Notes under the pieces: model-generated | Told to the model about the DNA's origin: nothing | Databases searched by the model: none | Seen by the model: the letters and a program-made list of their open reading frames with translations, nothing else | Translations under genes and position numbers: made by a program | Shown here: one piece after another, positions 4,306 to 27,642 of the stretch | Numbering within the stretch: position 1 is the stretch's first letter | Layout of the letters: every line of letters starts with the position of its first letter | IMG/VR virus record: IMGVR_UViG_3300022933_000007 | Coordinates: 1 to 53,001 of that record | Direction: 5' to 3' (one strand) | Source of the DNA: a virus | Lineage: Duplodnaviria; Caudoviricetes | DNA length: 53,001 nt

Positions 4306-4311
4306 TATATA

Positions 4312-4524
4312 CTATTTCCCCTTGAAAAGATTTTCAACAATTTCATTTATCCTCTCTTGAGATAGCTCAACCGTCCTTTTTAAATATTCTGTTGGTTGCC
4401 TGTCTACCTGTTCTTTATCCCATTTGAAGACTAGGGCACAGAAGACGTAGACTTCATCAGTGATTCTATCGAGTCCTCCCCTGTCATCGCTGTTATCCAC
4501 GGTTTGACTAACTCTTCTAAAGGG
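4312..4524 (-). CDS. -1 frameshift extension of tail assembly chaperone (gpGT-like)
   Basis: The -1 frame is open from the CCCTTTA heptamer to the stop at 4312 and overlaps the end of the chaperone gene. Confidence 0.7.
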   Translation of the reverse strand, partial: PFRRVSQTVDNSDDRGGLDRITDEVYVFCALVFKWDKEQVDRQPTEYLKRTVELSQERINEIVENLFKGK

Positions 4525-4793
4525 AACACTTTCATGACCTCAGACATGATTTTCGTAACTACTTTTGATGGTAATTGATTGAATAGAGTAAGATTCTTTA
4601 CATCTACTGGTGATTTAGTGATACATGCTTGTAATATCATTTGCTGGTATAGTGGTATATTTACTCTGATTGCTTTTGGGTCTGATATGTCTATACATGC
4701 TTTTAGTATTTTTTGTGTATCTCCCCACGTTAAATCATCAATAAATGATACATCTTCATCTACACCTTTAATATTGACTTTAAACTCTGGCAT
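4431..4793 (-). CDS. Tail assembly chaperone (gpG-like)
   Basis: 120 aa between tail tube and tape measure; carries an in-frame slippery heptamer. Confidence 0.75.
   Translation of the reverse strand: MPEFKVNIKGVDEDVSFIDDLTWGDTQKILKACIDISDPKAIRVNIPLYQQMILQACITKSPVDVKNLTLFNQLPSKVVTKIMSEVMKVFPLEELVKPWITAMTGEDSIESLMKSTSSVP
4518..4524 (-). promoter_or_regulatory. Programmed -1 ribosomal frameshift site C CCU UUA
   Basis: X XXY YYZ heptamer in the correct phase (TTC CCT TTA) with an open -1 frame downstream. Confidence 0.7.
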
Positions 4794-4825
4794 TAATAAT
4801 AGTAATAAAACAGAAGTATATAAGT

Positions 4826-5833
4826 CTATGGGGGAGATGCTATGCTGTTGTTTGCTGTGATGTCAACACTTCTTAAAGTCCAAGACAAATCTTCAAAGAC
4901 TGGTTCACCCGGTGAAATTTCTGTTGAATGGTCTGATACACCTACTCCAGTAAAGTCAAGAATAATTGCTTTTTCTGCTGTAGTTGCTAAACCATTTGTT
5001 AATGTAATTTGTAATGTTGCTACACCAGTGTTTGGTGTAGTTCCATCGGCTGCATGGAATACTCTTTCAATTTGAGTCTTGTCTACAACTGCTGTTTTAA
5101 ATTTACCAGACATTTCGAATATTTTTCTGTATGCTCCTACTGCACTGGCAGAACCAATACCATAAAGTAATTCTGTATTCATACCAAAGTTAATTTCAAA
5201 TTCTTGTAATTGTGCTATTACTGTTCCATCAGGTAATTCCATAGTTGCATGTGCAAAAGTATATGGGAATTTAATATCATCTGCTGCAATTGTTGTATCA
5301 ACACTTGTTCCTATTGTGTCTTCATTACCCCATGCTAACTCAGCAGAACATTTTACAGTTTCTCCCAATGAGGCTTTTAAGTTTAATGAATTTAATACAA
5401 CTCCTTTCATATTTCTGACAACATCTTCTGTCTCTGCATCCAAGCCAAATTCCATATGCATTGTGTTAGGAATTACAACACCTGTATTAGAGGCTGTCAA
5501 GTCTGTAGATTTTGATGACCATACGTGTGTATAATCTGAAGCAGAACCTGAAGTGTCTATACCTGCTGAAGCGTCATCATTTTCACCTAACATAAAACCG
5601 AAAATCCAAGGATTAGATAAAACAAATTCTACTGAACCTGTACCTTCATTTTTACCATAAGCAAAACATTGAACTTCAATATCGCCTAACGCTTTTAATG
5701 GGATTTGATTATTTTTCCAAGTAACACCTGATAATTTTTGTTCTAAACCGAAAACTCTAGTCCGTGTGGCTCCTCCACCAAATGTGTTTTCATGTCCATA
5801 TTGCAGATAGCCACTAGAGCCTGTCCTAACTAA
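4826..5833 (-). CDS. Major tail tube protein; N-terminus extends about 80 codons beyond the tracked ORF, without a canonical start codon
   Basis: Frame is open from the in-frame TGA near 5840 (VRTGSSGYLQYGHENTFG...) into the 255-aa tracked ORF; tail-tube-like composition and gene position. Confidence 0.75.
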   Translation of the reverse strand, partial: LVRTGSSGYLQYGHENTFGGGATRTRVFGLEQKLSGVTWKNNQIPLKALGDIEVQCFAYGKNEGTGSVEFVLSNPWIFGFMLGENDDASAGIDTSGSASDYTHVWSSKSTDLTASNTGVVIPNTMHMEFGLDAETEDVVRNMKGVVLNSLNLKASLGETVKCSAELAWGNEDTIGTSVDTTIAADDIKFPYTFAHATMELPDGTVIAQLQEFEINFGMNTELLYGIGSASAVGAYRKIFEMSGKFKTAVVDKTQIERVFHAADGTTPNTGVATLQITLTNGLATTAEKAIILDFTGVGVSDHSTEISPGEPVFEDLSWTLRSVDITANNSIASPP

Positions 5834-5952
5834 GGGTATTCACCATAGGTACTGTATTCTTTTAAAGTATTTAAGTATTCTTGTAGTAGTGATAATCCCA
5901 ATGACACGATTTACAGAGGGTAATTCCGTTACTTATCTCTAATGCTAGGTCG

Positions 5953-6378
5953 TTATGGGTTTAGGATTCTGTATGTGGCTTCCATAACGTATCTGTGCAT
6001 GTTTCTGTAGTTATGACTCAGATTCTTTGTAGAAGTGATTCTTAGGTCTGTATAGCCTGTTCTTCTTACCTGTGCTTTTAGTATTTTGTCTATTTGGTCT
6101 ACTACGTTTCTATGTCTTGTTTCTGTTCCATATCCCCGGATATCGATTATGACTACAGGATAGTGTAAATGGTCTCTACCGTATAAACTAAAGTAATCTA
6201 TCTTCTCATTTCCGGGTGTGAGTACGACTATATCCTGAGTATCATCAATAATACCGGTTGCTTTCTCTTCCCAGTTTACAGTGAATTTAGGCTTTGGAAC
6301 ATCATCGTTATCGTAGTTCCATTCATCATTCATCATGTTAATGATATCGTCAATTGCATCATAAGTTCCTACTCCCAT
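5953..6378 (-). CDS. Putative tail terminator / tail completion protein
   Basis: 141 aa directly upstream of tail tube; size and position typical. Confidence 0.5.
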   Translation of the reverse strand: MGVGTYDAIDDIINMMNDEWNYDNDDVPKPKFTVNWEEKATGIIDDTQDIVVLTPGNEKIDYFSLYGRDHLHYPVVIIDIRGYGTETRHRNVVDQIDKILKAQVRRTGYTDLRITSTKNLSHNYRNMHRYVMEATYRILNP

Positions 6379-7049
6379 TACATTCTACCTCTATCAAGTG
6401 TATGTGAACCGTTATCATAGTTAAGGATTGTGCTGTTCTTTGAGAACGTGACTGAGTTTGGTTGTATTCCTTGTGCTGATATTTTCTCCCTCAATTTCCA
6501 AGATAACCACTTTCTTGCCTTCATTTTTGCTGCCCTTGACCTTTCTGTACCAAAATGATATGAGCCGTCCTTAACTCTCCAATAATTAAAATTGACCATT
6601 CTATCTAAATTAGGTCTCTCTTTTAGATATACATTTCTCATCCAATCAGAAAATCCATCCTTAGTTCCAAATAATGATGCAGTTTGTGGCTTTAATACGT
6701 ATCCAACAATCTCCTCATCTTCTTCTGCTTCCTCTTCATAGTTAGTATCATCTATAAGTTCTCCTCCCGGTGGGGAGCCATACTGTTCTATATCTGCACC
6801 AATTGAATTTTTAATATTAGCAGATTCTACAATTGCACTTATCGCTGCGTCTGTGAAACTCTTTTCATCTGTTGTAAATTCTTTTACTCCACTTGCTACT
6901 GATGATAGTTTGTATAGTGCTTCTCGTAGTCTTCTTTTTCTTTGTCCTTCTTGTCTGGCTGTTGTTGCTTCCCCACGTTTTTCATTAATAGATTGTAAAT
7001 ATCTGTTTGCTTCTTCTTGTAGTTCAGCATCGAATGGTTGAGCGGTCAT
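6378..7049 (-). CDS. Hypothetical neck-region protein
   Basis: 223 aa, translationally coupled to both neighbours. Confidence 0.4.
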   Translation of the reverse strand: MTAQPFDAELQEEANRYLQSINEKRGEATTARQEGQRKRRLREALYKLSSVASGVKEFTTDEKSFTDAAISAIVESANIKNSIGADIEQYGSPPGGELIDDTNYEEEAEEDEEIVGYVLKPQTASLFGTKDGFSDWMRNVYLKERPNLDRMVNFNYWRVKDGSYHFGTERSRAAKMKARKWLSWKLREKISAQGIQPNSVTFSKNSTILNYDNGSHTLDRGRM

Positions 7050-7711
7050 GCAATCGGAATAATCTCTTGACGTTGGTGTATGGTTCTATCTATATCTTCT
7101 TTCCATTGGTTTATTGAATCTCCCCAAGACCATCCACCTGAACCACCTACAGGCAATATGTCTGCTCTAAATGATGTTGATAGTAATTCTACTGCTACCA
7201 TTTTTACACATGCCTCTTCAATGTCTAACGGAACAGTTGTGTCACCATAACGATAAGTAATTCTCATTCTGTTCTTTCTCATTACTGTAAAGATAAATCC
7301 TCTCATGTAAAGTCTTCCATATTCGGGGTCAAGTACAAACCCACCATCAGCATTATCTGTAATATCATTATAGTTTGCAGACCCACCAGTATTCCCTCCA
7401 GAAGCACCATCGTATACTTCAAGTGAATCTCCTGAACTAGATACTAGTCCACCGTTTGCGTCTGTTCTGATTTTTCTATGTCGGAGGAATAAAGGAGTAC
7501 CCCAACCAAATTCATATATAATAGGCATATCATGTACTTCAGTAGTGGCAGTTGCCTCACGCCATGCGTGACCAGTTCTTCTGTCTATTTCATCTTCTTT
7601 TCTGTTGATTAGTTTAATTACTTGTGCTTTGTTTGGTGTGGTTGTGTCTGTTATATCTACCCTCAAAAAATCTGCAACATCTTGCACAGTACAGTAGACA
7701 GGAGTAACCAT
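7046..7711 (-). CDS. Head-tail adaptor (gp6/gp15-like)
   Basis: YCTVQDVADFL...IDRRTGHAW...ITYRYG...VPLDIEEACVKMVA pattern. Confidence 0.75.
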   Translation of the reverse strand: MVTPVYCTVQDVADFLRVDITDTTTPNKAQVIKLINRKEDEIDRRTGHAWREATATTEVHDMPIIYEFGWGTPLFLRHRKIRTDANGGLVSSSGDSLEVYDGASGGNTGGSANYNDITDNADGGFVLDPEYGRLYMRGFIFTVMRKNRMRITYRYGDTTVPLDIEEACVKMVAVELLSTSFRADILPVGGSGGWSWGDSINQWKEDIDRTIHQRQEIIPIA

Positions 7712-7776
7712 ATGCTTAAATATGTGCTCCTATCTTTTAAAGTTTGCTCTAGTAACTAAACATGTATTACCTTACT

Positions 7777-7860
7777 TCAAGCTGATTTTATTGCTTCTTG
7801 CCCGGCAGAACTTGATGCTAGTTCATTAAATTTGCCTGTATCTAAAGTGCCTAAACCCAT
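7777..7860 (-). CDS. Possible 27-aa peptide
   Basis: ATG immediately after the upstream stop; MGLGTLDTGKFNELASSSAGQEAIKSA. Confidence 0.3.
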   Translation of the reverse strand: MGLGTLDTGKFNELASSSAGQEAIKSA

Positions 7861-8277
7861 CTAAGATTCGCCACGGTGATATATGTCTAATACACCTTGA
7901 CTTGACCCAACGGCTGCTTTGATTCTAACAACACATCTATTATAAGGATTGTCTAAAGTCTCTATTACAGGTGCTGCGGCTGCTGTTAATGTCGTTTCTG
8001 CTTTTATTTGTACCCAGCCATTTCCATAATCTGTGGCATCTGTACCGGTCATATCAGTGTGGTCTGGTAACCAATCTGCTGTTGCCCAAATTTCATATTT
8101 TAAATCATTTGTAATACAATATAATGTAAATACTGAAGTTCTGACATTTCTACAGTCAATATCTAAACATGTTGCATAAGCGTCAGTTGATGTTAATGCT
8201 AAATTTCTATTATGTAGCCCAACTATTGAACTTCCATCATTTGTGGTTTTCTCTCTACGTTGGTCTTCCTGAGCCAT
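7861..8277 (-). CDS. Putative virion structural protein
   Basis: 138 aa beta-rich ORF in head module with its own TATA box. Confidence 0.45.
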   Translation of the reverse strand: MAQEDQRREKTTNDGSSIVGLHNRNLALTSTDAYATCLDIDCRNVRTSVFTLYCITNDLKYEIWATADWLPDHTDMTGTDATDYGNGWVQIKAETTLTAAAAPVIETLDNPYNRCVVRIKAAVGSSQGVLDIYHRGES

Positions 8278-8340
8278 ACGTAATTATGTATAGTCTACCT
8301 TATAAAGTTATTGGAAAAAAAGAAAAAAGGGTGTAAAAAA

Positions 8341-8709
8341 CTAAAATCCTACTACTCGTAGTTTACAGGTCATAGTGATAGAGTCGGCATCATCTGCTTC
8401 ATCGAGGACTGCACTTGCAGTTCCTGATTCATATAGTTTTAGCTTCCCTGTTGCTGCTGCACCTAGGGCTGCTGGAACGTATTGGGGTATATTGCCTGTT
8501 GAAACCTCTAGAACTGTTACTGCAATAATTGTAGTGAGTCTGCCGTCTAGGGTTAAATCTAGGACGTTTCCTGCAATATCGTAATCTTCTGATGTATAGG
8601 TTACGTCTACAATTGCTGTTTTGAGTTTGGATAATAGTTCTGCTTGTATGGATAGTGTTTTCCCGGTTACTGATTGGTAATCGGAATTCACTGCGATTGC
8701 GAGAGTCAT
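8341..8709 (-). CDS. Putative capsid decoration/cement protein
   Basis: 122 aa Ala/Thr-rich ORF directly after major capsid gene; own promoter and T-rich terminator. Confidence 0.5.
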   Translation of the reverse strand: MTLAIAVNSDYQSVTGKTLSIQAELLSKLKTAIVDVTYTSEDYDIAGNVLDLTLDGRLTTIIAVTVLEVSTGNIPQYVPAALGAAATGKLKLYESGTASAVLDEADDADSITMTCKLRVVGF

Positions 8710-8774
8710 TAAAATATGTGGAAAGTCATTATATATAAAGATTTAAAAAAATGAAAAAGTGGGAATTGGTTCGA

Positions 8775-10001
8775 CTAAAGTTTAATGTCTCTAATCTTGC
8801 CTTGTGATTTAAAGTGTCTACAGACAGTTTCTCCCATTGTTCTGAACAATGCTTTCTCAACAAGTGTGTTACTGTTGATAAATGGATAACCCGGAGTACG
8901 TCTTGTGGCTTCGTAATACTCGGTTGGAATTGCGACTTGAATTCCTAATCTAGGATAACCAAATCCTTCTGCATCAGAAGTATCTAATGCAAATAGTCTA
9001 CCGACTTCAGTTCCTCCAGTAGTTGGAGCATCTTTGGTTGGTACAAATGGTATGCCGTAGAGTGAGTTTACGTGGATACCTACACCAGTTCCATCGAATG
9101 TTTTGATTCCGTTAACATCGACTTGTACAATCTTCTCACCGTATGGGTTTGCGACCCTGACTTGTGGAAGGTATAAGCCTTGAATTTCGGAGTAAACTTC
9201 GTGGCTTCCTAAGAATACATTTGGGTCTTTACCAGCAGCAATTCTGATTTTTCTGAGGTGAGTTCTAATTACATCATCAGTTAAGACACCATCAGTACCT
9301 AAAGTACCGGATGCTGATTCAACTGTTGCATCGTAAGTAGTTCCACTATCTCTGTCAATTGCAGAGGTAGTTGCTTTCCAAGGGTCATAATAGTCTGTGT
9401 ATGTACCGCCTTGTGAGTCTTCTTCAGCATCGGAAGAAATAATTCTATCCAATGATTCAAAGTCATTAGTACCGGCAAAGTTTGCACTTGCAGCAGCAGC
9501 GTCAGTTGCTACATCATTCAAGAGAGCTTGATTGATGAGTTCTTTGTGCTGTACAGCCATATACAATCTTAATGAACCGAGTCCACCCCAAATATCGTCT
9601 TTACTGTGATTTGAGAGCCATTCCATAACTTCAGATGTACTGAAAGTTAGTGCCATAGTCTTTGGTCTAACATCAATCTCAGCAATTGTAGGCTTGATTG
9701 TGTCAGGAATTACACCACCTTCTGCGACACCACCTTTAGAGGTGTTGCCTTGTGCTGTATCGACTGTTGGTCTTGCGGAAATAACCCTCCATCCAGATTT
9801 ATCCCAAGGATATTTTGGTAAGATACCGAAAGCGTTTGCTTCAAGATTTAATTGTGCCCATGCATATGCACCAAAGACTGCGTTGAAAACGCCTCCTGTT
9901 GATGTTAACATTGGGTTGTTGGTCTTGGAGATTAAGCTTCGGCTAAATCCACCGTAGTATAGAGACTCTAATTCGTCCATAGTTCTAATGCCGTTCACCA
10001 T
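8775..10001 (-). CDS. Major capsid protein (HK97 fold)
   Basis: 408 aa after protease and scaffold; FNAVFGAYAWAQLNLEANAFGILPK.PW..SGWRV and C-terminal QGKIRDIK resemble archaeal tailed-virus capsid proteins. Confidence 0.88.
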   Translation of the reverse strand: MVNGIRTMDELESLYYGGFSRSLISKTNNPMLTSTGGVFNAVFGAYAWAQLNLEANAFGILPKYPWDKSGWRVISARPTVDTAQGNTSKGGVAEGGVIPDTIKPTIAEIDVRPKTMALTFSTSEVMEWLSNHSKDDIWGGLGSLRLYMAVQHKELINQALLNDVATDAAAASANFAGTNDFESLDRIISSDAEEDSQGGTYTDYYDPWKATTSAIDRDSGTTYDATVESASGTLGTDGVLTDDVIRTHLRKIRIAAGKDPNVFLGSHEVYSEIQGLYLPQVRVANPYGEKIVQVDVNGIKTFDGTGVGIHVNSLYGIPFVPTKDAPTTGGTEVGRLFALDTSDAEGFGYPRLGIQVAIPTEYYEATRRTPGYPFINSNTLVEKALFRTMGETVCRHFKSQGKIRDIKL

Positions 10002-10588
10002 TATAAAGTACCCTCCTTATCGTATTTTTCAGCAATGTCCAATAGACTTTTTCCTACCATTGACAAGTTCTCAAAACCTGCATTTCTGCATTTTGAGAGA
10101 ATTTGGTATGGCAAGAGGTCTTCTTGTGCATTTTGTGCTTTTGACACGTTTGTGGTTGGTCTTTCGACTGGTGATGTTACATGAGATGAGATAGATTTCT
10201 CTTGCATCTTAAGGTCACCTTTATCTCCTTCTGGTTTATCTTCGACTTTTCCATTGGCATCTTGGATACCGGATTGGTCACCAGTTGGGTAAGGGTCTTT
10301 TGGTGCAGTGACTTTGTCACCAATATCTTCGCTATCAGCATTGCCTTTTGGGCTTTGTGGTAGGTCAGTAGGTGTCTCCATTGCTTTCTCCATCTTGTCT
10401 TGTCTTGCGACAATTGATTTGAGTGCTTCTAGGATTGCCTTATTGGTTTCTTCTTTGTCATCATCGTCAGAAGCTTTCACTTCTGGTTTGATTTCGTCTT
10501 TCTCGTCCTCTGCTTTTTTCTCGAAGGGATTTTCTTTTTCCTCTTCGTCAGCTTTGGCTATGGTTTTTATGTCATCTAATGTGGTCAT
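10001..10588 (-). CDS. Capsid scaffolding protein
   Basis: Highly charged, low-complexity 195 aa between protease and capsid genes; many K-A/K-S motifs. Confidence 0.65.
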   Translation of the reverse strand: MTTLDDIKTIAKADEEEKENPFEKKAEDEKDEIKPEVKASDDDDKEETNKAILEALKSIVARQDKMEKAMETPTDLPQSPKGNADSEDIGDKVTAPKDPYPTGDQSGIQDANGKVEDKPEGDKGDLKMQEKSISSHVTSPVERPTTNVSKAQNAQEDLLPYQILSKCRNAGFENLSMVGKSLLDIAEKYDKEGTL

Positions 10589-10603
10589 GTTGTTATAATA
10601 ATT

Positions 10604-12385
10604 CTATATAAAGGGGTTTATAAAGATTATGTTTCCTACGCCATTTACTAAATGTCCTTCAGGAGATACTTCTACATTGTCACCATACTGTGCTATTCCT
10701 TCTGCTGATGTTGAAAACTTGTTCATTTCCATTACCCATTCTTCTTCTGCTTTGTTTTTAATTGCTTTTAGTATAGGCATTGGTTCTTCTTTGTAGTTTT
10801 CTATATAGTCTTTTATTGCTAGGTGTAGTTCTGAGTTGTTGTCTGTGTTTTTATTTTCCTCCCAATATTTTCTTACTCCTTTCTCAAATTCACATTCTTT
10901 CTTTGCAATAGGGTCTGTAGGCTTGTTTCCTAGTTTGGTTGGGTCTCCTAGTTTCTCTGGAGTTATTGCGTCTGCGTCTTTCTTTTTCTCGTCTTTAGGG
11001 TCTGATTCTGATGATGTTACTTGGTTACTTCCCCCGGTTCCGTTTACTGTAGTATTATATGCACCTAACCCTCTTGGGTTTTCAGTGCCTGTACCAACTA
11101 TATCTTTCTGAATTATGATTGAACATCCACATGATTTTTTAAAGTATTGTCTATCTCCATCAGGTTTTGCTACTTCGTCTACACCTGTTTCAGATAGGTC
11201 TGGTTTTTCAGAACAACTTGCTTTTTCATCACATTGATTACCTACACCTGTTGAACCCATTACATGGTCTGCTTTATGTTTTGGTGCATTAGGATTTATT
11301 CCATGTTCATTATTATGACGTGACCCACAGTATGCTTCAGCGTCTCTAATGTCATCTTTATTTCCTTCTCCAGAAATACAAGATTCAGTTGAACTGTATT
11401 CTTTTTGACCTGCATGAACTTTAGTATCTTTATCTACGTGTTGCTGAATTGAGCCACAATATCCACCGGCATTGTGTACCGATGGGTCTTTCTTTGCGTG
11501 TGCCTCACAGGCTGCAAATTCCATTTTTCCATATTTAGTAGGTAATGGTTTAGTCTTATCGTCTGGTCTCTTTAAATCAGTTTCAGGAAAGTCTTCCTCG
11601 TCTTGTCCGTAAATATCTTTTCCTGCTTCATACCAAATAGTACCATTGGAATCAATCATATGTATTTTTAATTTTTCTTCTCCTTCTTCAGTTGCTTCTG
11701 GGTTATAACCTTTGGCTTCACCAATATGAGTTTCAACTTCTTTAGGAACATCGTCTTGGTCTATTGGAGTACCCATATCTGCTTTTCTTACTTCTGCGTT
11801 GATATAACAACTTGTACCATCACATTTGGCTTTTAATTCTTCTCCATCTTTTTCTACATGGACTGCCTTTGCTAATGGGTTTACATCTGTAATTAATGCG
11901 AATGCAACTGCTGGGTCTTCACATACTGCCACTTCATATATCTCTAGGTCTTTTAATCTGTATGCCATCGTTCCATCTGATTGTGGTACTGGTATTCTGT
12001 TTGCTTTTGTTGCCCCTCCGAATGATAATCCTTTGTAAGTACCATCAACTATTTGTTTCCAAATGAAATCATCTAATGCTGTGTTTGAATGTATTTTACC
12101 TAAAATTTTAATTGCTGGGAGTTTCTCACCATTTTTAGCCTGAAGTGTTACTTTTTCAAAATTGATACCTCTGCCTACAATACGATTTGAATGAGTGTCT
12201 GACATTGGTGCATTTCTCTCCATCCATATTGGAAGAGCCTTGTATAGTTCATCTATATCTGTAATCTCTCCTTGACGGTCTTTAATCTCTACTGATAATA
12301 TGCCTTCAAAGAAACGGTCTGTATTATCTTCTTTAATAACTAGTTGTTTTGTGACAAAATTGGACACAGTTATCTCGTCTGTCAT
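10604..12385 (-). CDS. Prohead maturation protease with long acidic C-terminal extension
   Basis: DRQGE...DTHSNRIVG...YKGLSFGG...IYEVAVCEDPA match HK97-family protease His/Ser motifs. Confidence 0.85.
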   Translation of the reverse strand: MTDEITVSNFVTKQLVIKEDNTDRFFEGILSVEIKDRQGEITDIDELYKALPIWMERNAPMSDTHSNRIVGRGINFEKVTLQAKNGEKLPAIKILGKIHSNTALDDFIWKQIVDGTYKGLSFGGATKANRIPVPQSDGTMAYRLKDLEIYEVAVCEDPAVAFALITDVNPLAKAVHVEKDGEELKAKCDGTSCYINAEVRKADMGTPIDQDDVPKEVETHIGEAKGYNPEATEEGEEKLKIHMIDSNGTIWYEAGKDIYGQDEEDFPETDLKRPDDKTKPLPTKYGKMEFAACEAHAKKDPSVHNAGGYCGSIQQHVDKDTKVHAGQKEYSSTESCISGEGNKDDIRDAEAYCGSRHNNEHGINPNAPKHKADHVMGSTGVGNQCDEKASCSEKPDLSETGVDEVAKPDGDRQYFKKSCGCSIIIQKDIVGTGTENPRGLGAYNTTVNGTGGSNQVTSSESDPKDEKKKDADAITPEKLGDPTKLGNKPTDPIAKKECEFEKGVRKYWEENKNTDNNSELHLAIKDYIENYKEEPMPILKAIKNKAEEEWVMEMNKFSTSAEGIAQYGDNVEVSPEGHLVNGVGNIIFINPFI

Positions 12386-12441
12386 GTATATCTAGTTGAC
12401 GCTAATGCTTTATAAATATTCTTAATAATAAAAAAAGAGGG

Positions 12442-12675
12442 TTACGATTGTGTAGTCGTATTACCGTTTGACTGTCCTGCTCTAAATCCAAAATACATTA
12501 GTGCAGCACCTGCAAATATTGTGCTGAATTGCCATGCCTGACTAAATTGTTCTTGTGTGATTTTTATATCACCGTATACAAATCCAGTAGCAATTCCGAC
12601 TCCTGCTGTTCCTATCAACAGAATTATAACTGATGATGCTAGAACTAGAGCCATTTCATTTTTTGTGAAAGCCAT
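12442..12675 (-). CDS. Small two-TM membrane protein (holin-like size)
   Basis: Two hydrophobic segments in 77 aa. Confidence 0.45.
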   Translation of the reverse strand: MAFTKNEMALVLASSVIILLIGTAGVGIATGFVYGDIKITQEQFSQAWQFSTIFAGAALMYFGFRAGQSNGNTTTQS

Positions 12676-12717
12676 GTAAATCCAACCATTAATCAGGTAT
12701 TTAAACTTGATGTAGAG

Positions 12718-12999
12718 TTATATCATAATGGCTATGACTACACCGGCTGTTGCTACAATTACACCTAATATGGATACTATCTTTCTGAATTTTATTAGAG
12801 ATGTTTCTCTTTTTACTGCTTTATGCCCAGCCAGAATTTGTTCCTGTTCTTTTTTATAACGTGTGAGTTCTTTACCGACTAAAAGGTGTGTATCAAACTT
12901 GCCTGATATATCTGCCTGTGATTCGACAAGTTTGTTGATTTGTTCCTGTATGTCGTCTATTCGTTCGAATATACGTTTAAATGCTATGTCATCTTCCAT
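12718..12999 (-). CDS. Coiled-coil protein with C-terminal TM anchor
   Basis: Heptad N-terminus and hydrophobic C-terminus. Confidence 0.45.
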   Translation of the reverse strand: MEDDIAFKRIFERIDDIQEQINKLVESQADISGKFDTHLLVGKELTRYKKEQEQILAGHKAVKRETSLIKFRKIVSILGVIVATAGVVIAIMI

Positions 13000-13043
13000 G
13001 TGTGTAATCCACTGTTATTCTATTTAAGTATTCTTTCTGAGTT

Positions 13044-13271
13044 CTAGTTTAGGGCAATAAGATGTCCTGTATGTATTAATGCTAGTATGATTTCAGGTTC
13101 AGACACAAATTGCTCTAATAGGTCTTCTGGTGAGCCTGTGCCGTCAAATGCACCACATGCGTAACATATTGCTATTGTGAATTCACCGTCTGAATACACG
13201 TACATATCCTTACCTTTCCTCGTACAGTTGTCCAATTGGCATGTTGGCACGTTATTTAACTTTTTTGGCAT
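13044..13271 (-). CDS. Small Cys-containing hypothetical protein
   Basis: CxxxxC and CxxC motifs; TATA box upstream. Confidence 0.5.
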   Translation of the reverse strand: MPKKLNNVPTCQLDNCTRKGKDMYVYSDGEFTIAICYACGAFDGTGSPEDLLEQFVSEPEIILALIHTGHLIALN

Positions 13272-13319
13272 ATCGACACTACAAACAGTTTATTAATAAG
13301 TATTATGTAAACTACAGTC

Positions 13320-13853
13320 ATGGCGTCATCAATATATGTATATAGAAGCATAGCCGAATACAAAAAGTATTATGAGGGAAAACATGAACAACTTATATAC
13401 CAAATACCTATACTTGATATGTATGTTGATACAGACAAAGAGAAGATGTTTGTCATTACTAACCAAGATTTGGATTCACAGAAACGCAATATAGATTTCT
13501 TTAGAACCATTGTACATGTTAGGAGTGAGACATTAGTTCCTAGTGTTATTAGTAATGATGAGTTTAATGTTAGAGTTGTTCAGCATGGTAAGGTTATGTA
13601 TAATGGTAAGAGTGGTAATATTGAGTTCTTCCCCCGATTTAGAGGATGTGATATGAAACAACATGCAGACAGATTTATTGGTGGTGCTAAGGACGAGCAG
13701 AAATATCTTTTAAAGTATGACTATCGATATTATGATTTTCAGCAAGATAGGATAAATCTAATTTTAGGAGATGTGCAAAATTCGGTTTTAGATAATTTAC
13801 GTTCAGTTTTGGGAAAAGTGGGTCGTTGCATATTTCCTCAAGATAATAAATAG
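13320..13853 (+). CDS. Hypothetical protein
   Basis: 177 aa, divergent promoter shared with 13044..13271. Confidence 0.55.
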   Translation: MASSIYVYRSIAEYKKYYEGKHEQLIYQIPILDMYVDTDKEKMFVITNQDLDSQKRNIDFFRTIVHVRSETLVPSVISNDEFNVRVVQHGKVMYNGKSGNIEFFPRFRGCDMKQHADRFIGGAKDEQKYLLKYDYRYYDFQQDRINLILGDVQNSVLDNLRSVLGKVGRCIFPQDNK

Positions 13854-14193
13854 TTGGTTTCTCAGAAGCCCAATGTTTAATCCATCTGTCATAATCTAAC
13901 TGTTCAAAGATATTATTAATTTCATTTTCATTGTTAGGAAAATTAACATATGTGTATAGGTTCACACCCGGATGAAAATATAAAAAGTTAGATAAGAATG
14001 CTAGTTTTCTATCCTTTCTAAAAATTAGAATCTTTTCAAAGTCTTTGTATTTCTCACTCCATTCTTTATTGGGAAATCCTTTTCTATAAATACATTCTAT
14101 CTTTTCTACAATACAGCCGGGGTATTTCCTGTAAAGGTATTCTACTAAACTAGTCTGTCCACATTTGTAAGCACCTATAATTGCAAATTTTAG
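13687..14193 (-). CDS. Second sulfotransferase-family protein; N-terminal half missed by the ORF track, non-canonical start
   Basis: Frame open from 14214: LKFAIIGAYKCGQTSLVEYL is a PAPS-binding loop, in frame with the tracked ORF 13687..13965. Confidence 0.65.
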   Translation of the reverse strand, partial: LKFAIIGAYKCGQTSLVEYLYRKYPGCIVEKIECIYRKGFPNKEWSEKYKDFEKILIFRKDRKLAFLSNFLYFHPGVNLYTYVNFPNNENEINNIFEQLDYDRWIKHWASEKPTIYYLEEICNDPLFPKLNVNYLKPNFAHLLKLDLSYLAENHNIDSHTLKDISARP

Positions 14194-14735
14194 AGTCTTA
14201 CTTTCCGTGTATCCTCACCGGTCATAATCTGTTTCCATTCTTTACCGTGTTTTCTACGCATTGATTTCCAGAATGGGTCATGTCCGAATTGTCCACCTGC
14301 TTTGTTATATGCTTTAGTGGTATCAGCAACTCGTCTGTTGCAAGTTCTGCATAATCTACAATTGATTTGTTCGATATTAAAATGATAGTCTCTACAGAAA
14401 TAACATAGTCCATAATATTTCGGGGCTACAACAGCCAATAAAGCCTCTCTACCTTTCTTACCTGCACAGTCTCCACATATATCTACAAGTGTTGCTGCAC
14501 AAGCTGCTTTAGTAAAACAACCAAAACATACTGCTTCATTATCATCGTTTACGTGTAGGTATTCATTTGATTGGTGTGCTTTCCATAGTCTCTGTTGATT
14601 CTCGTTAGCGTTATGTTCTCCACCGGAGATTTTTCTATCATTACCCAATCTGTTTACACCCACACATATTACATTCGTAGTCATCTCTAGTAGATTGATG
14701 ACATGAACAGTCACATGGTAGCAAACTGCACTCAC
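14190..14735 (-). CDS. Multi-CxxC Zn-finger protein
   Basis: Several CxxC motifs (CFGC, CGDC, CYFC, CRTC); true start may be the internal Met of MTTNV. Confidence 0.6.
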   Translation of the reverse strand: MSAVCYHVTVHVINLLEMTTNVICVGVNRLGNDRKISGGEHNANENQQRLWKAHQSNEYLHVNDDNEAVCFGCFTKAACAATLVDICGDCAGKKGREALLAVVAPKYYGLCYFCRDYHFNIEQINCRLCRTCNRRVADTTKAYNKAGGQFGHDPFWKSMRRKHGKEWKQIMTGEDTRKVRL

Positions 14736-14746
14736 CGTCTTTACAT

Positions 14747-15217
14747 TCAGGCAATTTCTTTATCCCTCTTTAGAATGGTTAGTTTTCTTAAGCACTCATC
14801 AATTATGTACACCGATTCTGTATGTGCATCGACATTGTCAGAAAGTGTGATTGCTCCAAAGATTCTGTCAATCTCTTCAAGTATTTTATGTTTAGTTACA
14901 TTTGATGGTATACCTACCATTGTTGAAGCAATATTCATCCATGAATTTGTTGACAATGTTTCGTCTTTGTTAAGTTCTACGGTTACTGTATTATCTGAAC
15001 CTGTAATAATATCATCTGGTAATGATTGTACCATTTTTGGTTTTTCTGTTAAATTAACTGTTCTAATTTTTCCTTGTGCTTCCATTGTTTTTGTTACAAG
15101 TGGTGATTTTTTCTTTCCCATATTTCTTTTTACCTTTTTGGTATGGGTACAGTTCTCTTCACAGTTAAGATGTTTCTTCATTATCATTCTCCCATCTGTT
15201 AAATGAATCAAACTCAT
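14747..15217 (-). CDS. Hypothetical protein downstream of portal
   Basis: 156 aa overlapping the end of portal. Confidence 0.5.
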   Translation of the reverse strand: MSLIHLTDGRMIMKKHLNCEENCTHTKKVKRNMGKKKSPLVTKTMEAQGKIRTVNLTEKPKMVQSLPDDIITGSDNTVTVELNKDETLSTNSWMNIASTMVGIPSNVTKHKILEEIDRIFGAITLSDNVDAHTESVYIIDECLRKLTILKRDKEIA

Positions 15218-17123
15218 TATCTACAAGTTCTCTTGCGTCTCTTACTGTCATCTTTGTTACCTTTCTTAATTCGTCTACTGTCTTGGTTTTCTTCCAACCG
15301 AAATCAAGTGAAGTCTGTAATGTGGTTTTAACTAATTCGTAATTGTTTGGTGTAATTCCATTAGGGAAATTCTTTCTGATACCTCCTGCTCTACCTGCTC
15401 CTCTTGGGTCACCTTGATTACCACCCTCAGTTCCAGTTCTCTTTCTTCCGGGAGCACCTTGCATACGTTGCTGTTCTTCTTTTGGAGCAGCACTGCCTCT
15501 ACCACGTTCACCCGGCTTTAAAACTGTATCCTGATTCTCTTCACCCGGCTGTTTATTCTGTTGATTGAATTGGTCTTGTAAAGTAACCACAGGTTCTTGT
15601 GAAACTTCGAATTTTCCAGTTGGTGTTCTGGTAACTTCGAATCCTAGTTCTTGATAGGCTTTCATGTTTTCAATTTCAACACCTTCAATCTGTAGGTCTC
15701 TGAGTTTGTCAGTTTCTTCACCTTCGTTAAGTTTGATATCCCAATCGTCAATACCCAAATGGTCAGCGATTTTTCTAAAGAATGATTTGTATAAAATATC
15801 TTGACCCCATTTGACAGCACGGTTTGTGATTGTAACTTGCAGTCCTTCTTGTGACCAACCAGTAGGAAGTTCACCGAAGTAAAGTGGAAGGACACCATAC
15901 AATGCACCGATAATCATTCTGAGTTCTCTTCTAATAACTGTAAACTCTAATTCCTTTAGTGAGCCAGTAAAGTCAAGCCATTCAGCCATCTTACCTTGTG
16001 CTCCTTTATCATTTTCTACTAACAGTGGTTGTATAGAATATGGGTCTTCTAATGCTTTTTGTTGTAATACATCCCATGATTTTCTGAAAGTTTCATAATT
16101 TCTTGAAGATAGAATAAGCATTCCTCTTGGAGGTCTCATCTTGTCGAAATATTTTCTAATGTATTCATCCATGTGAGACAAAGCCATTGCCTTTGACCAG
16201 ATGGTATAAATTGGTGAATAACCATAAAGTAATCCCGGTGAGTATTTTCCAACTTTCCATATGATTTCTCCTTTAGCATAAACAACTCTTTTTGGTGTAG
16301 GAACACCGAGTCCATAAACTGTGTTAACTTCGAACCATGCAGGTAATCCAATTGCATTACAGATGTGACATCTTGCCTCTTCACCATCTTTGGTATACAT
16401 GAGATTTTCTTTTCGGTGGGCAGGGTCAGGGCAAACCATAACTTGAGCACCAGTATCAGTATAACCTAATCTACCATCAGCGTCAACAATGAATGCAATG
16501 CTAGGTGGGTCTATTCTGATATATTCAGTATACTCTTTAACTTTAGATTTTCCAGTATCATCATTGATTTTATATTTAGGGGAAGTAAGCATAAATGCCA
16601 TGTCGAATATTTCAAGGTCTTGTTCTAGTTGTCTAGATAGTTCTTCTAATGTCTGCTCGTTTCCATTGATTGGTTTTGTCATTAGGTCTTCTAGTCTTTT
16701 TCTGTTTGCTGGGTCTGGTTTTACTATGTTATTTCCCCCACATGTATCACACATGAGTGGGTCGTCTTTTAAATCTTGAACATCTGAATTAGGCATCTCA
16801 TCTACTGATATAGTTTCTTTCTTTTTCTCATGAGGTGGATATTCAAATTGTTTTGAACAGTCCTGACATTTGTATTTGAATCGTTCTTTGATTTCAAATC
16901 CATTCTTGAACATTTCTCTGTTTAAAGTATCAATTGGAATTCTCACTGCGTCTACAGTCTTGGCTAGTTCAACAACCATAGCCATTGGGAATGGGAAAAT
17001 TGGTAATTTAGCACCTGTATCGGTACTCATCATAGGCGTGGATACTGTAGGTCTTACAGTTTGTGTAGTATTACGTTTGGAAATGAAATTAAATCCTTTA
17101 GATAAACTATCATACAAACCCAT
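15165..17123 (-). CDS. Portal protein with Zn-ribbon insertions
   Basis: LYGYSPI...YF...PRGML...LKELEF...RMIIGALYGVLP portal motifs; CxxC pairs inserted. Confidence 0.88.
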   Translation of the reverse strand: MGLYDSLSKGFNFISKRNTTQTVRPTVSTPMMSTDTGAKLPIFPFPMAMVVELAKTVDAVRIPIDTLNREMFKNGFEIKERFKYKCQDCSKQFEYPPHEKKKETISVDEMPNSDVQDLKDDPLMCDTCGGNNIVKPDPANRKRLEDLMTKPINGNEQTLEELSRQLEQDLEIFDMAFMLTSPKYKINDDTGKSKVKEYTEYIRIDPPSIAFIVDADGRLGYTDTGAQVMVCPDPAHRKENLMYTKDGEEARCHICNAIGLPAWFEVNTVYGLGVPTPKRVVYAKGEIIWKVGKYSPGLLYGYSPIYTIWSKAMALSHMDEYIRKYFDKMRPPRGMLILSSRNYETFRKSWDVLQQKALEDPYSIQPLLVENDKGAQGKMAEWLDFTGSLKELEFTVIRRELRMIIGALYGVLPLYFGELPTGWSQEGLQVTITNRAVKWGQDILYKSFFRKIADHLGIDDWDIKLNEGEETDKLRDLQIEGVEIENMKAYQELGFEVTRTPTGKFEVSQEPVVTLQDQFNQQNKQPGEENQDTVLKPGERGRGSAAPKEEQQRMQGAPGRKRTGTEGGNQGDPRGAGRAGGIRKNFPNGITPNNYELVKTTLQTSLDFGWKKTKTVDELRKVTKMTVRDARELVDNEFDSFNRWENDNEETS

Positions 17124-17734: not shown

Positions 17735-18445
17735 ATGGTCACGGAAATGATTTGTAGAGCGAAATCAGACGGAAAATACGATTCTGTAAGGGTTTCTGGG
17801 GTCACAATTGAACAACAAATCGAAGATGACAGAAAATTTGGCTTTTTATCACCAAAAAACGGTGTTTTGAACTACATTATACTCAATAATGACAAAGAAA
17901 TCACAGAAAAACAGGTAAAAAGAGCAGTTTCGATGGCACTTTTCGGGTGGAGATTGCACGTTCCAATCAAGTTTAGACGTGTAAAAAACCGATTAGACGC
18001 AGATATTACAGTACAATTCAACTCAGAAGAGGACGATGAACTTTTAGATAAAAATACATTAGCATATATGTACTATCCACTCGGAGGAATCAATGATGGC
18101 AAATGTGTCGTAAATAAGCGATTTCACTGGACAAACCACGGTAAAGGGGTGGATATGCATGAAATAGACCCAACACACTATCCAATTCCTACCCCAAGCA
18201 ATCCAAAGGGTAAAACATGGGATTTAGACAAGGTATTGCGTCACGAGTTTGGTCATGGTGTATTCGGTTTGCCTCATTCCCAAAGCGAAGCCAGAATCAT
18301 GAGTGGTAATGAATCATTCATGGCAGAGTTTTTCACGGGGGAAGACATAACAAGAGCACAAGCAAAAGCAGGAATCAGAGAAGGGTTTGCACATAGATTA
18401 AAACAGTTGACCGGCTGGTATAAAATTAGAAGTAACAACTCTTAG
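17735..18445 (+). CDS. Matrixin (M10-like) metzincin metalloprotease
   Basis: HEFGHGVFGLPH zinc motif, Met-turn RIMS, ADITVQF and TLAYMYYP. Confidence 0.85.
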   Translation: MVTEMICRAKSDGKYDSVRVSGVTIEQQIEDDRKFGFLSPKNGVLNYIILNNDKEITEKQVKRAVSMALFGWRLHVPIKFRRVKNRLDADITVQFNSEEDDELLDKNTLAYMYYPLGGINDGKCVVNKRFHWTNHGKGVDMHEIDPTHYPIPTPSNPKGKTWDLDKVLRHEFGHGVFGLPHSQSEARIMSGNESFMAEFFTGEDITRAQAKAGIREGFAHRLKQLTGWYKIRSNNS

Positions 18446-18696: not shown

Positions 18697-18801
18697 ATGA
18701 ATGCAAACAAATTTGAAGATGTACCAATTCTTAATACCCAAAAGATAACTGGGATGACAAGAATTCAGACTAATGATTATTCAGTCAAGGAGTATTACTA
18801 A
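18697..18801 (+). CDS. 34-aa peptide with internal degenerate tag ILNTQKITG
   Basis: Manual translation; TAATG coupling to next ORF. Confidence 0.45.
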   Translation: MNANKFEDVPILNTQKITGMTRIQTNDYSVKEYY

Positions 18802-18944
18802 TGTTAAACACAGATAAAATAAATGGTGGGTATGATGTACGAGTTGATTACAATCCTTGGTCATCATCAGGTTCAGAGCCTGAGCCGGGCAATGTTGCAG
18901 TACGATTTGATTGCGAATCATTAAGGAGAATTATAGGAAATTGA
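18801..18944 (+). CDS. NTDK-tag peptide 1 (47 aa)
   Basis: MLNTDKINGGYDVRVDYNPWSSSG...; coupled on both sides. Confidence 0.65.
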   Translation: MLNTDKINGGYDVRVDYNPWSSSGSEPEPGNVAVRFDCESLRRIIGN

Positions 18945-19177
18945 AATTATCTAGAAAAGAATTAGAGAGCACTGTTTGCCTAGCGTGTGCAAAGAAATTT
19001 GGGGAGCATACAAAAGACAGAGGCACGAAATTCAGCATAAGTTCATTAATGGAATGCATGTTTAGAATCCAAGGTACCTATATGGAAATTGCAGATTTGA
19101 AACAAAAGGATATGGAAACACATCCCGGGGTAATGGACATGCGTTCAGATATATCTAAAGGTGATAATAATGAATAA
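18911..19177 (+). CDS. Hypothetical Zn-binding protein
   Basis: CLAC...H...C; likely start TTG at 18941. Confidence 0.5.
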   Translation: MRIIKENYRKLKLSRKELESTVCLACAKKFGEHTKDRGTKFSISSLMECMFRIQGTYMEIADLKQKDMETHPGVMDMRSDISKGDNNE

Positions 19178-19403
19178 ATTTGGTATTGGTTTTTTAATTG
19201 GTATTATTCTATTGTTTGGTAGTATTGTTATTGCGTCTGAATATAAGTATGGTCAGTCACCGGGAGAAGTGATAGGAGAATTTATTTTCATATTAGAATC
19301 AATGGAATGTGATGAATTATATTATACCATTATTAACGATGATTTAGAATATACCAAAAAGTTTTATATGGACAATTGTATATTTGGTGATACTAATGCT
19401 TAA
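19161..19403 (+). CDS. Small membrane-anchored protein
   Basis: N-terminal TM helix; ends in AAT GCT TAA overlapping next tag ORF. Confidence 0.55.
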   Translation: MIIMNKFGIGFLIGIILLFGSIVIASEYKYGQSPGEVIGEFIFILESMECDELYYTIINDDLEYTKKFYMDNCIFGDTNA

Positions 19404-19539
19404 CACAGATAAAGCCTACGGCAACTCGAGCATAGTTGAGCCTATGTTCGGTGGACTATCTATGTTAAGAGTAATGGCAGCCAACGCTCATAAGGAAGCA
19501 GTTGAAAATTTATTATTGAGGGATTTGAATGACACTTAG
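19396..19539 (+). CDS. NTDK-tag peptide 2 (47 aa)
   Basis: MLNTDKAYGNSSIVEPMFGG... Confidence 0.65.
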   Translation: MLNTDKAYGNSSIVEPMFGGLSMLRVMAANAHKEAVENLLLRDLNDT

Positions 19540-19636
19540 AAGAAATTATGGTATTAGTATAGAGGCAATACAAAGGATTAAGAAATTAGAATTATTAGAA
19601 CGGATTGCAGTAGCATTGGAGAAAAATAATGCTTAA
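19529..19636 (+). CDS. 35-aa helical peptide
   Basis: MTLRRNYGISIEAIQRIKKLELLERIAVALEKNNA; overlaps both neighbours. Confidence 0.5.
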   Translation: MTLRRNYGISIEAIQRIKKLELLERIAVALEKNNA

Positions 19637-19718
19637 TACAGATAAGATAAATAATGTAAAAGAACGTAGTTCAATAGAGGTTATAAATTTTTGGGAGAAT
19701 TTGCTTGCTAAACACTGA
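19629..19718 (+). CDS. NTDK-tag peptide 3 (29 aa)
   Basis: MLNTDKINNVKERSSIEVINFWENLLAKH. Confidence 0.6.
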   Translation: MLNTDKINNVKERSSIEVINFWENLLAKH

Positions 19719-19815
19719 TAAGATTAATGGTTATCCATATTATGAAGATACCCCTAAACGATATCCATTTATTTCAATAACACCTGAAACATTTAGGGAG
19801 TTTATTAATGCTTAA
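19705..19815 (+). CDS. NTDK-tag peptide 4 (36 aa, TTG start)
   Basis: MLNTDKINGYPYYEDTPKRYPFISITPETFREFINA; GGGAG about 8 nt upstream. Confidence 0.6.
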   Translation: MLNTDKINGYPYYEDTPKRYPFISITPETFREFINA

Positions 19816-20005
19816 TACAGATAAGATAAACAATATTAAAAAACAGTATGCAGAAACATACAAGTATAGTGACGGCATGTATGAGACAAAATATTATCAA
19901 GACTCTGAATATTTATGGGGGCTTGACACTGTAACAACAAGAGAACATCCTTTAGGATGGGAGATGGAAGATGGTCATATTGCGAGGTATGATGTTGTTC
20001 GATAG
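19808..20005 (+). CDS. NTDK-tag peptide 5 (65 aa, Tyr-rich)
   Basis: MLNTDKINNIKKQYAETYKY...; in ORF track. Confidence 0.7.
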   Translation: MLNTDKINNIKKQYAETYKYSDGMYETKYYQDSEYLWGLDTVTTREHPLGWEMEDGHIARYDVVR

Positions 20006-20546
20006 AAGCGAAGCCAACGTTCTAAGTGAACTGGATAAGAAAAAGTTCTACACAATCGTGGGGGTTTCAAAGTGCGGCACTACATCCACAGCGAAATACT
20101 TACAAAGTCTGGGGTATTCAATTGAGAAAGCCGATGGGTGGTTTGACAAGCCTAAATTTATAGAGTCATGGGCTAACAAGAATAACCAACAGCATATTGT
20201 TCCCTTGATTATATTAAGAGACCCAATTGAAAGGGCATGGAGTCACTTTCATTATATGTTCCAGAACAAGCCATATGATGAGACAGATGACAAAATTAAA
20301 GCGGAGCGTCTCGAGAAGGTGTCGAGGCTATCTTGCTATACCAGATGGTTAGGCGAGTGGCTAGATTTGGGGGCAGTTGTGCTCTGGTATGAGGACTTGA
20401 TAGAATTACCGAATTTCCCTCACGAGAACAAAACAAAAGTTAAACCTGAGTTGGATGAGGATACTAGTGCTATGATTAATAATTTTATTATGGATGAGTA
20501 TTATTCTTTTTTTACGGAGTTTTCCCCCACGACTAAGACTGAGTAA
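19971..20546 (+). CDS. PAPS-dependent sulfotransferase family protein
   Basis: IVGVSKCGTTS (5'-PSB loop) and LRDPIERAWS (3'-PB motif). Confidence 0.85.
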   Translation: MVILRGMMLFDRSEANVLSELDKKKFYTIVGVSKCGTTSTAKYLQSLGYSIEKADGWFDKPKFIESWANKNNQQHIVPLIILRDPIERAWSHFHYMFQNKPYDETDDKIKAERLEKVSRLSCYTRWLGEWLDLGAVVLWYEDLIELPNFPHENKTKVKPELDEDTSAMINNFIMDEYYSFFTEFSPTTKTE

Positions 20547-27378: not shown

Positions 27379-27642
27379 ATGAAATGTGATACAAGATTAT
27401 TAGAGGCACTTGATGTGTCTAGTATAGAGAATGTGGAAACCGTAAAATTGTCTAGCAAATTAACAGCTAGTGATTCCATGAGGGCAAGTAACTTTGCAGT
27501 TTTATTAGTGAATGTTCCTACACCTGAAGGTAATACACAATTCTTTAGAGCAACCAAAAACTCACAAGTTCCTTTGAATACTGAGATAATCAGAAATTCC
27601 GAAGGTCAATTAGTGGGTATTCCAGCAGTTAGTGGTGGATAA
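27379..27642 (+). CDS. Ubiquitin-like beta-grasp protein (MoaD/ThiS/SAMP/Urm1-type)
   Basis: 87 aa ending GQLVGIPAVSGG-stop, resembling the MoaD/SAMP tail; internal AVLLVN; strong AAGGAGGT upstream. Confidence 0.62.
   Translation: MKCDTRLLEALDVSSIENVETVKLSSKLTASDSMRASNFAVLLVNVPTPEGNTQFFRATKNSQVPLNTEIIRNSEGQLVGIPAVSGG

Follow-up and report, generated by a model that had tools for sequence, protein, structure and literature searches.

A Nine-Residue N-Terminal Tag Shared by Otherwise Unrelated Mini-Proteins in a Putative Archaeal Tailed Virus

Introduction

Address tags on variable cargo are already known from the internal proteins of bacteriophage T4 and from the leaders of peptides that ribosomes synthesize and that are modified after translation (RiPPs). 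Prochlorosins and cyanobactins are RiPP families in which one conserved leader is combined with many variable cores. The sulfated RaxX/RaxST system, as presented in portions of two accounts (PMC6637879, 10.1101/442517), offers a further RiPP comparison. In T4, a short N-terminal peptide, the capsid-targeting sequence (CTS), is described in passages of two papers as common to the diverse proteins IPI, IPII, IPIII and Alt (PMC3012670, PMC9026906). According to one of these passages, the propeptide has about 10–19 residues and stands on otherwise dissimilar proteins (PMC9026906). Here, we analyze a related arrangement in a virus record of 53,001 bases from IMG/VR (IMGVR_UViG_3300022933_000007), the whole of which is referred to below as the window. 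Within it, an array of very small proteins shares nine N-terminal residues (the tag), which are followed by dissimilar remaining sequences (the cargos).

The likeness to the T4 CTS lies in the format. As the passages cited above relate for T4 (PMC3012670, PMC9026906), the locus varies between related viruses, and the peptide is more conserved than the sequence that follows it; here, the nine residues stand on 19 open reading frames (ORFs), whose cargos are unrelated within the window. Conversely, the present virus appears to be an archaeal one, its tag is unrelated to the CTS in sequence, and no link to a scaffold or prohead protease was found in its structural proteins. Its cargos, mostly acidic, are far smaller than the T4 internal proteins, which are basic, and the genes lie between a metallopeptidase and a sulfotransferase. 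The likeness to RiPP loci lies in several precursor-sized genes that adjoin a tailoring-type enzyme and a peptidase, in a leader far more conserved than the core, and in a sulfotransferase as a neighbor. In contrast, the leader here has nine residues, a recognized leader-binding domain was not found in eight operon proteins, the cores are not rich in Cys, Ser or Thr, Tyr is not universal among them, and the setting is an archaeal virus.

The tag motif did not occur in the literature searched, and nothing relevant to a tag system or a sulfotransferase system of archaeal viruses was found among the results listed. What appears to be new is that unusually small proteins of an archaeal virus share a putative address tag at the N-terminus, within a peptidase–sulfotransferase operon, and with coding DNA that doubles as a stop–start adaptor.

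Results and Discussion

Selection on the Tag

The nonapeptide is a translated N-terminal tag under purifying selection that acts on the peptide. The five array starts of the window follow the pattern M-L-N-T-D-K-(I/A)-x-(G/N), and a sixth copy lies elsewhere in the window (Table 1). Scans with the flanking genes led to four further virus lineages with 13 more copies, all of them in frame and at ORF starts. This gives 19 copies, 17 of them canonical, with the consensus M-L-N-T-D-K-(I/A/V)-x-G. The five starts given in the original prediction (18801, 19396, 19629, 19705 with TTG, and 19808) were recovered at these positions, as was the degenerate ILNTQKITG at 18727, which lies inside a 34-aa ORF (18697–18801).

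Information per base, taken over the 17 canonical copies, follows a strict 3-periodicity: in the N, T and K codons, it is 2.0 bits at positions 1 and 2 and 0.5–1.1 bits at the wobble position; Thr uses all four of its codons, and Leu uses TTA, CTT, CTA and TTG. Residues N3, T4 and K6 are invariant in 19/19 copies. The original prediction had taken the mostly synonymous variation of the tag as a sign that the peptide, rather than a DNA site, is under selection, and the counts bear this out. Over codons 2–6, synonymous and nonsynonymous differences stand at 23:0 in the five array copies of the window (10 pairs), at 315:31 in the 17 canonical copies (136 pairs) and at 386:85 in all 19 copies (171 pairs), where the pairs do not represent independent events, as the copies share ancestry. 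Codons 7–9 are looser (126:266), with Gly9 kept in 14/19 copies by means of three different codons. For roughly half of the tag pairs, the synonymous divergence (dS) has reached saturation. Because the synonymous sites are saturated and the changes are almost only synonymous, the tag copies appear to be old, with their residues maintained by selection at the protein level.

Chance is excluded as the source of the repeated tag. A back-translated LNTDK pattern has five matches in the window against 0.11 expected, and 0/100 shuffles gave as many as five. In the six-frame translation of the window, NTDK occurs six times, always at residues 3–6 of ORFs that begin with a start codon, and LNTDK is the sole N-terminal 5-mer common to at least three of the 1680 candidate starts.

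It could also be supposed that the repeat is a DNA junction, a recombination or regulatory site that is read as peptide only incidentally. Such a site would agree with cassettes that vary in order and number, and with the use of GAT for 15/16 Asp codons. However, every copy of the motif stands in frame where an ORF begins, and its conservation is 3-periodic with a variable wobble position. In the homologous loci, where a motif out of frame or with mostly nonsynonymous changes would have pointed to a DNA repeat, the opposite was seen: the motif is in frame, and its changes are mainly synonymous. A scan of IMG/VR with the exact DNA gave 26 single-copy loci and no mini-ORF array, and the single deletion variant seen does not connect two tags. 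A pure DNA repeat is thus nearly excluded. The 26 loci themselves were judged to be chance or unrelated matches: most lie inside longer ORFs, and 12 of the 26 repeat one 49-aa tail.

From the start codon onward, the copies resemble one another in DNA, a similarity that tapers off over about 27 bases. Upstream of the tagged starts, only a GGAG-like motif is conserved; over all loci, a Shine–Dalgarno-like (SD-like) GGAG or GGTG is present 9–15 nt upstream in 18/19 copies.

Stop–Start Overlap

The arrangement of codons shows that the tag DNA doubles as a stop–start junction in any frame. The stop codon of the upstream ORF lies −4 to +14 nt from the tag start in 19/19 copies, although in one of them (L043a, which follows an intergenic stretch) the overlap is doubtful. 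This stop takes the form of TAATG, of TAA within CTT-AAY or TTA-AAY, or of TGA within ACT-GAT. Off-frame stops number 3.26 per first ten codons in the tags vs 1.80 in reference windows. Synonymous recoding of the tags yields 2.64 ± 0.20 (P 0.0005, for copies that are not independent), and both alternative frames are stopped in 15/19 tags vs 31% of the reference windows. Among the 19 copies, six start with TTG and one with ACG or ATT. The overlap of tag and upstream stop shows how a virus can keep a gene-turnover hot spot expressible.

These properties could mean that the tag is a portable translation-coupling adaptor, which ends the upstream gene in any frame and restarts translation efficiently, while the peptide is a by-product or is selected for early elongation alone. 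An upstream stop inside or beside every tag, the enrichment of off-frame stops over synonymous recoding, the closure of both frames in most copies, and the common weak start codons are what such an adaptor would display. The stop–start role nevertheless cannot account for everything, because positions outside any stop codon are equally fixed, namely the "AC" of Thr (19/19) and the "GG" of Gly9 (14/19). Moreover, the wobble bases vary freely, the first base of Leu varies only synonymously, the sequence before the start is unconserved apart from the GGAG-like motif, and the window has further coupled genes that lack the tag. We consider an adaptor of this kind rather improbable as an account of the tag.

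Cargo Families and Cassette Turnover

The cargos had been described as unrelated after about nine residues, and within the window this is true. With the tag removed, all 15 cargo pairs (the sixth copy included) have z ≤ 2.2 against shuffles. Between viruses, several cargo families recur, with z from 14 to 4.2, beside a number of singletons. Family A comprises the window ORF at 19396, L044e, L033 and L043d (z 5–14); family C comprises L031c and L044a (z 13); family F comprises L043a and L044b (z 7); and family B comprises the window ORF at 18801 and L043c (z 4.2). The cargos evolve fast: dN (nonsynonymous divergence) between relatives is 0.2–1.1 while their tags are identical or nearly so.

A family A profile was compared with 1.84 billion representative proteins and retrieved 11 proteins at E ≤ 0.001, 10 of which are tagged. 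The tag is present even where the family A cargo is barely recognizable; among the 10 tagged proteins, three have Glu in place of Asp and two have a short front extension. AlphaFold2 predicts a single long helix for family A, spanning residues 11–46 with a block-mean predicted local distance difference test score (pLDDT) of up to 90, and gives the first ten residues low confidence (mean pLDDT 57). The model therefore suggests that the tag is flexible in this family. All tagged proteins are very small, 28–65 aa with cargos of 19–56 aa, and the cargos are mostly acidic, with a net charge of −5 to +1 in 17/19 and of +3 and +4 in the other two.

The tag may itself be the active part, either a short linear motif by which a single host target is bound or blocked, or a modification acceptor at Thr4 or Lys6. 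The tails of these old paralogues would then only tune or stabilize it. The three invariant residues, the saturated synonymous sites (and hence the age of the copies), and the fast evolution of the cargos are compatible with this possibility. By pure conjecture, an 87-aa ORF of the window that ends in Gly-Gly could in principle be joined to the lysine. Yet no fewer than four cargo families have been conserved between viruses, which implies that the tails have functions of their own; the confidently predicted helix of family A is separate from the tag; and it is not obvious why a genome should carry one warhead in six to eight copies. An active tag is therefore, in our estimate, unlikely.

The 87-aa ORF just mentioned (27379–27642, plus strand) ends in Ser-Gly-Gly, stands just ahead of a 786-aa gene, and is a possible ubiquitin-like modifier. 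It contains LNTEIIRN, a weak likeness to the tag in the position-specific scoring matrix (PSSM, score 13.5), which is probably due to chance.

The tagged genes also change place. Relative to the gene of a conserved Cys/His protein (Table 1), the family B gene is found upstream in the window but downstream in L043, and for family C the upstream placement is that of L044 and the downstream one that of L031. One contig of an RNA library agrees with the window as far as 18695, where the TM1 gene ends; from there, as read by eye, it runs on into a different canonical tagged start. At 18695/18696 the window itself has the 34-aa ORF with its degenerate internal tag instead. The two sequences point to a strain-level cassette replacement exactly at this gene junction. 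Contigs of three RNA libraries cover the operon partially and at low depth, and such libraries can contain DNA, so that this coverage is no demonstration of transcription and its gaps are uninformative.

In a separate observation, one contig from a DNA run omits 156 nt (19434 to 19591); the gap opens directly behind the ORF 2 tag and closes 38 nt short of the tag that follows. This is a weak hint of a deletion variant, as the shorter side has only 30 letters. The skip would join the ORF 2 tag to a 12-codon tail, with the frame read by eye.

Related Lineages and Operon Structure

The tagged genes keep their neighbors in the related viruses. They lie directly upstream of the sulfotransferase gene in 5/5 lineages, and the gene of the M10 peptidase lies upstream of them in 4/4 loci that extend far enough. 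Interspersed among them are the conserved Cys/His protein and one or two small membrane proteins, and the number of tags per locus is 1 to 5. Lineage L031 (with L032 and L041; record G001) has three, MILNTEKIR, (TTG)LNTSKIRK and MLNTDKIDG, and L033 has one, MLNTDKIAG. L043 has four, three of them canonical and TTG-started and one degenerate (NITNTEKING). L044 has five, one of which is without an in-frame ATG, GTG or TTG and has only ACG or ATT.

This last ORF (L044:317–469) belongs to family F and is conserved in L043; after the preceding stop, its in-frame start candidates are limited to ATT and ACG directly ahead of the Leu codon. From its sequence, start codon use may be relaxed in the virus–host pair.

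The clade is small in the viral contig collection scanned, where further scans with the flanking genes returned only these same few contigs. A word-index protein search with the tag alignment yielded seven proteins from 29 candidates, all of this clade. A corresponding search among longer proteins scored 0/4742 candidates, which is weak evidence against a long tag-bearing protein.

The features of the window are collected in Table 1. The identity of the M10 peptidase is firm, as judged from its match to Pfam PF00413 (E 8.9e-18; 65.1 bits vs a cut-off of 24) and from its translation, which contains the zinc motif HExxHxxGxxH, HEFGHGVFGLPH. The Cys/His protein carries C-x-x-C, His and Cys and is the best-conserved small gene of the operon. 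No Pfam family was found for it, and the PDB gave one weak lead, a small zinc-finger protein of archaeal origin (E 0.14). Protein Atlas yielded nothing usable for this protein or for the family A cargo. The sixth tagged ORF is coupled by ATGA to the preceding gene and overlaps the start of the MCM gene. Homologues of this copy near MCM were not found in the relatives; a candidate in L057 rests on a 10-residue match and was judged to be due to chance.

Table 1. Tagged ORFs and neighboring features of the window
Feature	Position	Strand	Remarks
M10 (matrixin-like) zinc peptidase	17735..18445	+	first gene of plus-strand block; Pfam PF00413
Small membrane protein TM1, 71 aa	18480..18695	+	hydrophobic N-terminus; same-position homologues in L031, L033, L044
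34-aa ORF	18697..18801	+	internal degenerate tag ILNTQKITG at 18727-18753, PSSM 12.3
Tagged mini-ORF 1, MLNTDKING, 47 aa	18801..18944	+	ATG; cargo family B; relative in L043, z 4.2
Conserved Cys/His protein, untagged, 78 aa	18941..19177	+	TTG start; 61% mean column identity across five lineages
Small membrane protein TM2	19170..19403	+	own stop codon within following tag
Tagged mini-ORF 2, MLNTDKAYG, 47 aa	19396..19539	+	ATG; cargo family A
Untagged 35-aa ORF	19529..19636	+	own stop codon within following tag
Tagged mini-ORF 3, MLNTDKINN, 29 aa	19629..19718	+	ATG
Tagged mini-ORF 4, LNTDKING, 36 aa	19705..19815	+	TTG start
Tagged mini-ORF 5, MLNTDKINN, 65 aa	19808..20005	+	ATG; Tyr-rich
Putative PAPS-dependent sulfotransferase	19971..20546	+	profile match PDB 3rnl; Pfam below cut-off
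Tagged mini-ORF 6, MKNTDKAYG, 50 aa	41991..42143	-	PSSM 25.9; different D and A codons vs array copies

Possible Function of the Tag

We propose, tentatively and with a probability of roughly 0.4, that the tag is a leader-like recognition sequence through which diverse mini-proteins reach a single shared partner, possibly the enzymes of the operon itself. The tag would act as a label that gathers otherwise unrelated mini-proteins at this single partner by being read there. The likeliest partner would be encoded in the operon itself: the M10 peptidase, the sulfotransferase, or both, with the mini-proteins being processed or modified as a presumed outcome. These enzymes are favored because of the synteny in 5/5 lineages, the precursor-like size of the peptides, and a leader that is far more conserved than the cores. 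The genes behave as cassettes, each with its own SD-like motif and start codon. As the first codons of the tag contain the upstream stop, any cassette can follow any other and still be translationally coupled.

The assignment of the sulfotransferase (PAPS in Table 1 denotes 3′-phosphoadenosine 5′-phosphosulfate) appears reasonable from profile comparisons. A profile of eight homologues matches PDB 3rnl ("Sulfotransferase") at E 3.8e-9, spanning both motifs, and matches heparan-sulfate 3-O-sulfotransferases at about 1e-5 to 5e-4. The four Pfam Sulfotransfer families give E 0.012–0.065, all below the cut-off. Columns G25, K28, G30, S33, R77 and S85 are invariant in the eight homologues; they correspond to a G-x-x-K-x-G-x-x-S loop and an R...S pair, which we take to be the PAPS-binding motifs of sulfotransferases.

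A second putative sulfotransferase paralogue occurs in the structural module of the window (13687–14217, minus strand). It is 23% identical to the enzyme beside the array, aligns with the PAPS-loop columns of that enzyme, and is read from a frame without a canonical start. Record G001 also has a second sulfotransferase copy (E 8.6e-15).

Tyr residues were considered as possible acceptors. Tyr makes up 7.7% of the cargos vs 3.5% in the window, an excess that two peptides drive (P 0.002 for the six window cargos and 0.014 for all 19, the cargos not being independent). A Tyr-sulfation signature was set aside, as an excess so modest, carried by two peptides and accompanied by 5/19 cargos without any Tyr, is too weak for that reading. 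Complex prediction for the sulfotransferase with the 65-aa tagged protein returned scores of 0.00 and 0.00 in runs without controls, and speaks neither for nor against binding.

Several observations weigh against a leader-like tag that is read by the operon enzymes. The sixth copy belongs to the replication module, 22 kb from the array, and front extensions of one or two residues are tolerated (L031a, L043b). One relative of family A, P0014, is without the LNTDK part, and the absence of Tyr from some cargos has been noted above. The tag has just nine residues, and usual RiPP leaders are longer. A leader-binding domain (RiPP recognition element, RRE, or PqqD) was not found in a Pfam scan of eight operon proteins, which left out the M10 peptidase and ORFs 3 and 4 and in which no protein scored above a family cut-off. 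The closest solved relatives of the sulfotransferase act on carbohydrates, and sulfotransferases of 34% identity (L045, L046) adjoin Gly-rich fiber-like genes and have no tags beside them. In G002 and G003, the M10 gene is 55–56% identical and is accompanied neither by tags nor by a sulfotransferase; in G002 (55%), it stands alone between minus-strand genes. The shared ancestry of the copies, which limits the pair counts, belongs here as well.

The original prediction had put forward a modular tag-plus-cargo system, with the peptides either as substrates for the adjacent sulfotransferase and proteases or as effectors packaged in the capsid. Its modular architecture and the selection on the peptide are borne out. 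The role of substrates is supported only by synteny and a modest Tyr excess.

Packaging in the capsid would require the tag to be a capsid-targeting sequence that binds the scaffold or the prohead interior, loads the mini-proteins, and is removed by the prohead protease, as in T4. The format agrees with the CTS as portrayed in passages of the T4 literature, a short N-terminal peptide common to diverse proteins at a changeable locus (PMC3012670, PMC9026906). In addition, the virus encodes a portal, an XkdF-like protease fusion and a capsid protein of the HK97 type, and the second sulfotransferase paralogue lies within the structural module. On the other hand, the tag PSSM matches nothing in the structural proteins, and neither a tag-like motif nor a shared protease site was found in the capsid protein or the other structural ORFs. 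The capsid protein does contain an NTSK, which is not kept in G002. A cleaved capsid propeptide is not evident, because the N-terminus of the capsid protein is conserved from residue 5. The cargos are tiny and mostly acidic, and the tagged genes lie outside the structural block. A capsid-targeting role, and with it the packaging of tagged effectors, seems to us distinctly unlikely. A link between the tag and the capsid NTSK or a scaffold tail was likewise rejected as a candidate, given that NTSK is not kept in G002 and that the PSSM result in structural proteins was blank.

Returning to the leader-like tag, a broader version can be formulated as a cargo-addressing system of an archaeal virus. 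Here, the leader would mark shuffling mini-proteins for processing by the metallopeptidase and the sulfotransferase, which would yield modified peptides made by the virus. The leader DNA would serve as a universal stop–start adaptor, so that new or swapped cassettes might be expressed at once. Taken with all of its parts, this proposal is speculative and unlikely. If the partner were found, the tag would become a handle on the delivery or modification of small effectors by archaeal viruses. It would also be a naturally occurring tag of nine residues with which proteins could be directed in archaeal systems.

Virus Record and Genome Setting

The CheckV completeness estimate for the record is 83%, and no terminal repeats were found in it. 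The window encodes a large terminase and an MCM helicase in addition to the portal, the HK97-type capsid protein and the XkdF-like protease fusion. Matches to the capsid protein in a phage collection are haloarchaeal tailed viruses only, and those to MCM are archaeal viruses only, both at about 25–35% identity. Thirteen further DNA runs from seawater or other marine samples contain at least 84% of the sampled words of the tagged stretch. Because the capsid protein and MCM match archaeal viruses and many marine metagenome runs contain the stretch, we treat the record as that of a probable uncultured marine archaeal tailed virus. A scan of genome contigs with the sulfotransferase profile gave a single distant bacterial match, and no provirus or host clue was found there.

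The minus-strand genes from 247 to 17123 are structural, and the plus-strand block begins at 17735 with the M10 peptidase. The tag array lies within the first 2.3 kb of this block. Divergence from the relatives is mosaic, with the structural genes far more similar than the operon. The capsid protein (8775–10001, minus strand; compared with L058 and L059) is 92% identical to that of G001 and 75% identical to that of G002, whereas the accessory operon proteins are 54–58% identical or absent; the sulfotransferase is 58% identical between the window and G001.

Two repeat-containing proteins were observed outside the array. A 534-aa protein of the window (51308–52912, minus strand) has internal repeats, with two pairs of similar 11-mers at in-frame starts. 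In G002, a 475-aa protein that adjoins the M10 gene (L034 7201–8628, minus strand) has many repeats of a similar kind, each of about 30 residues.

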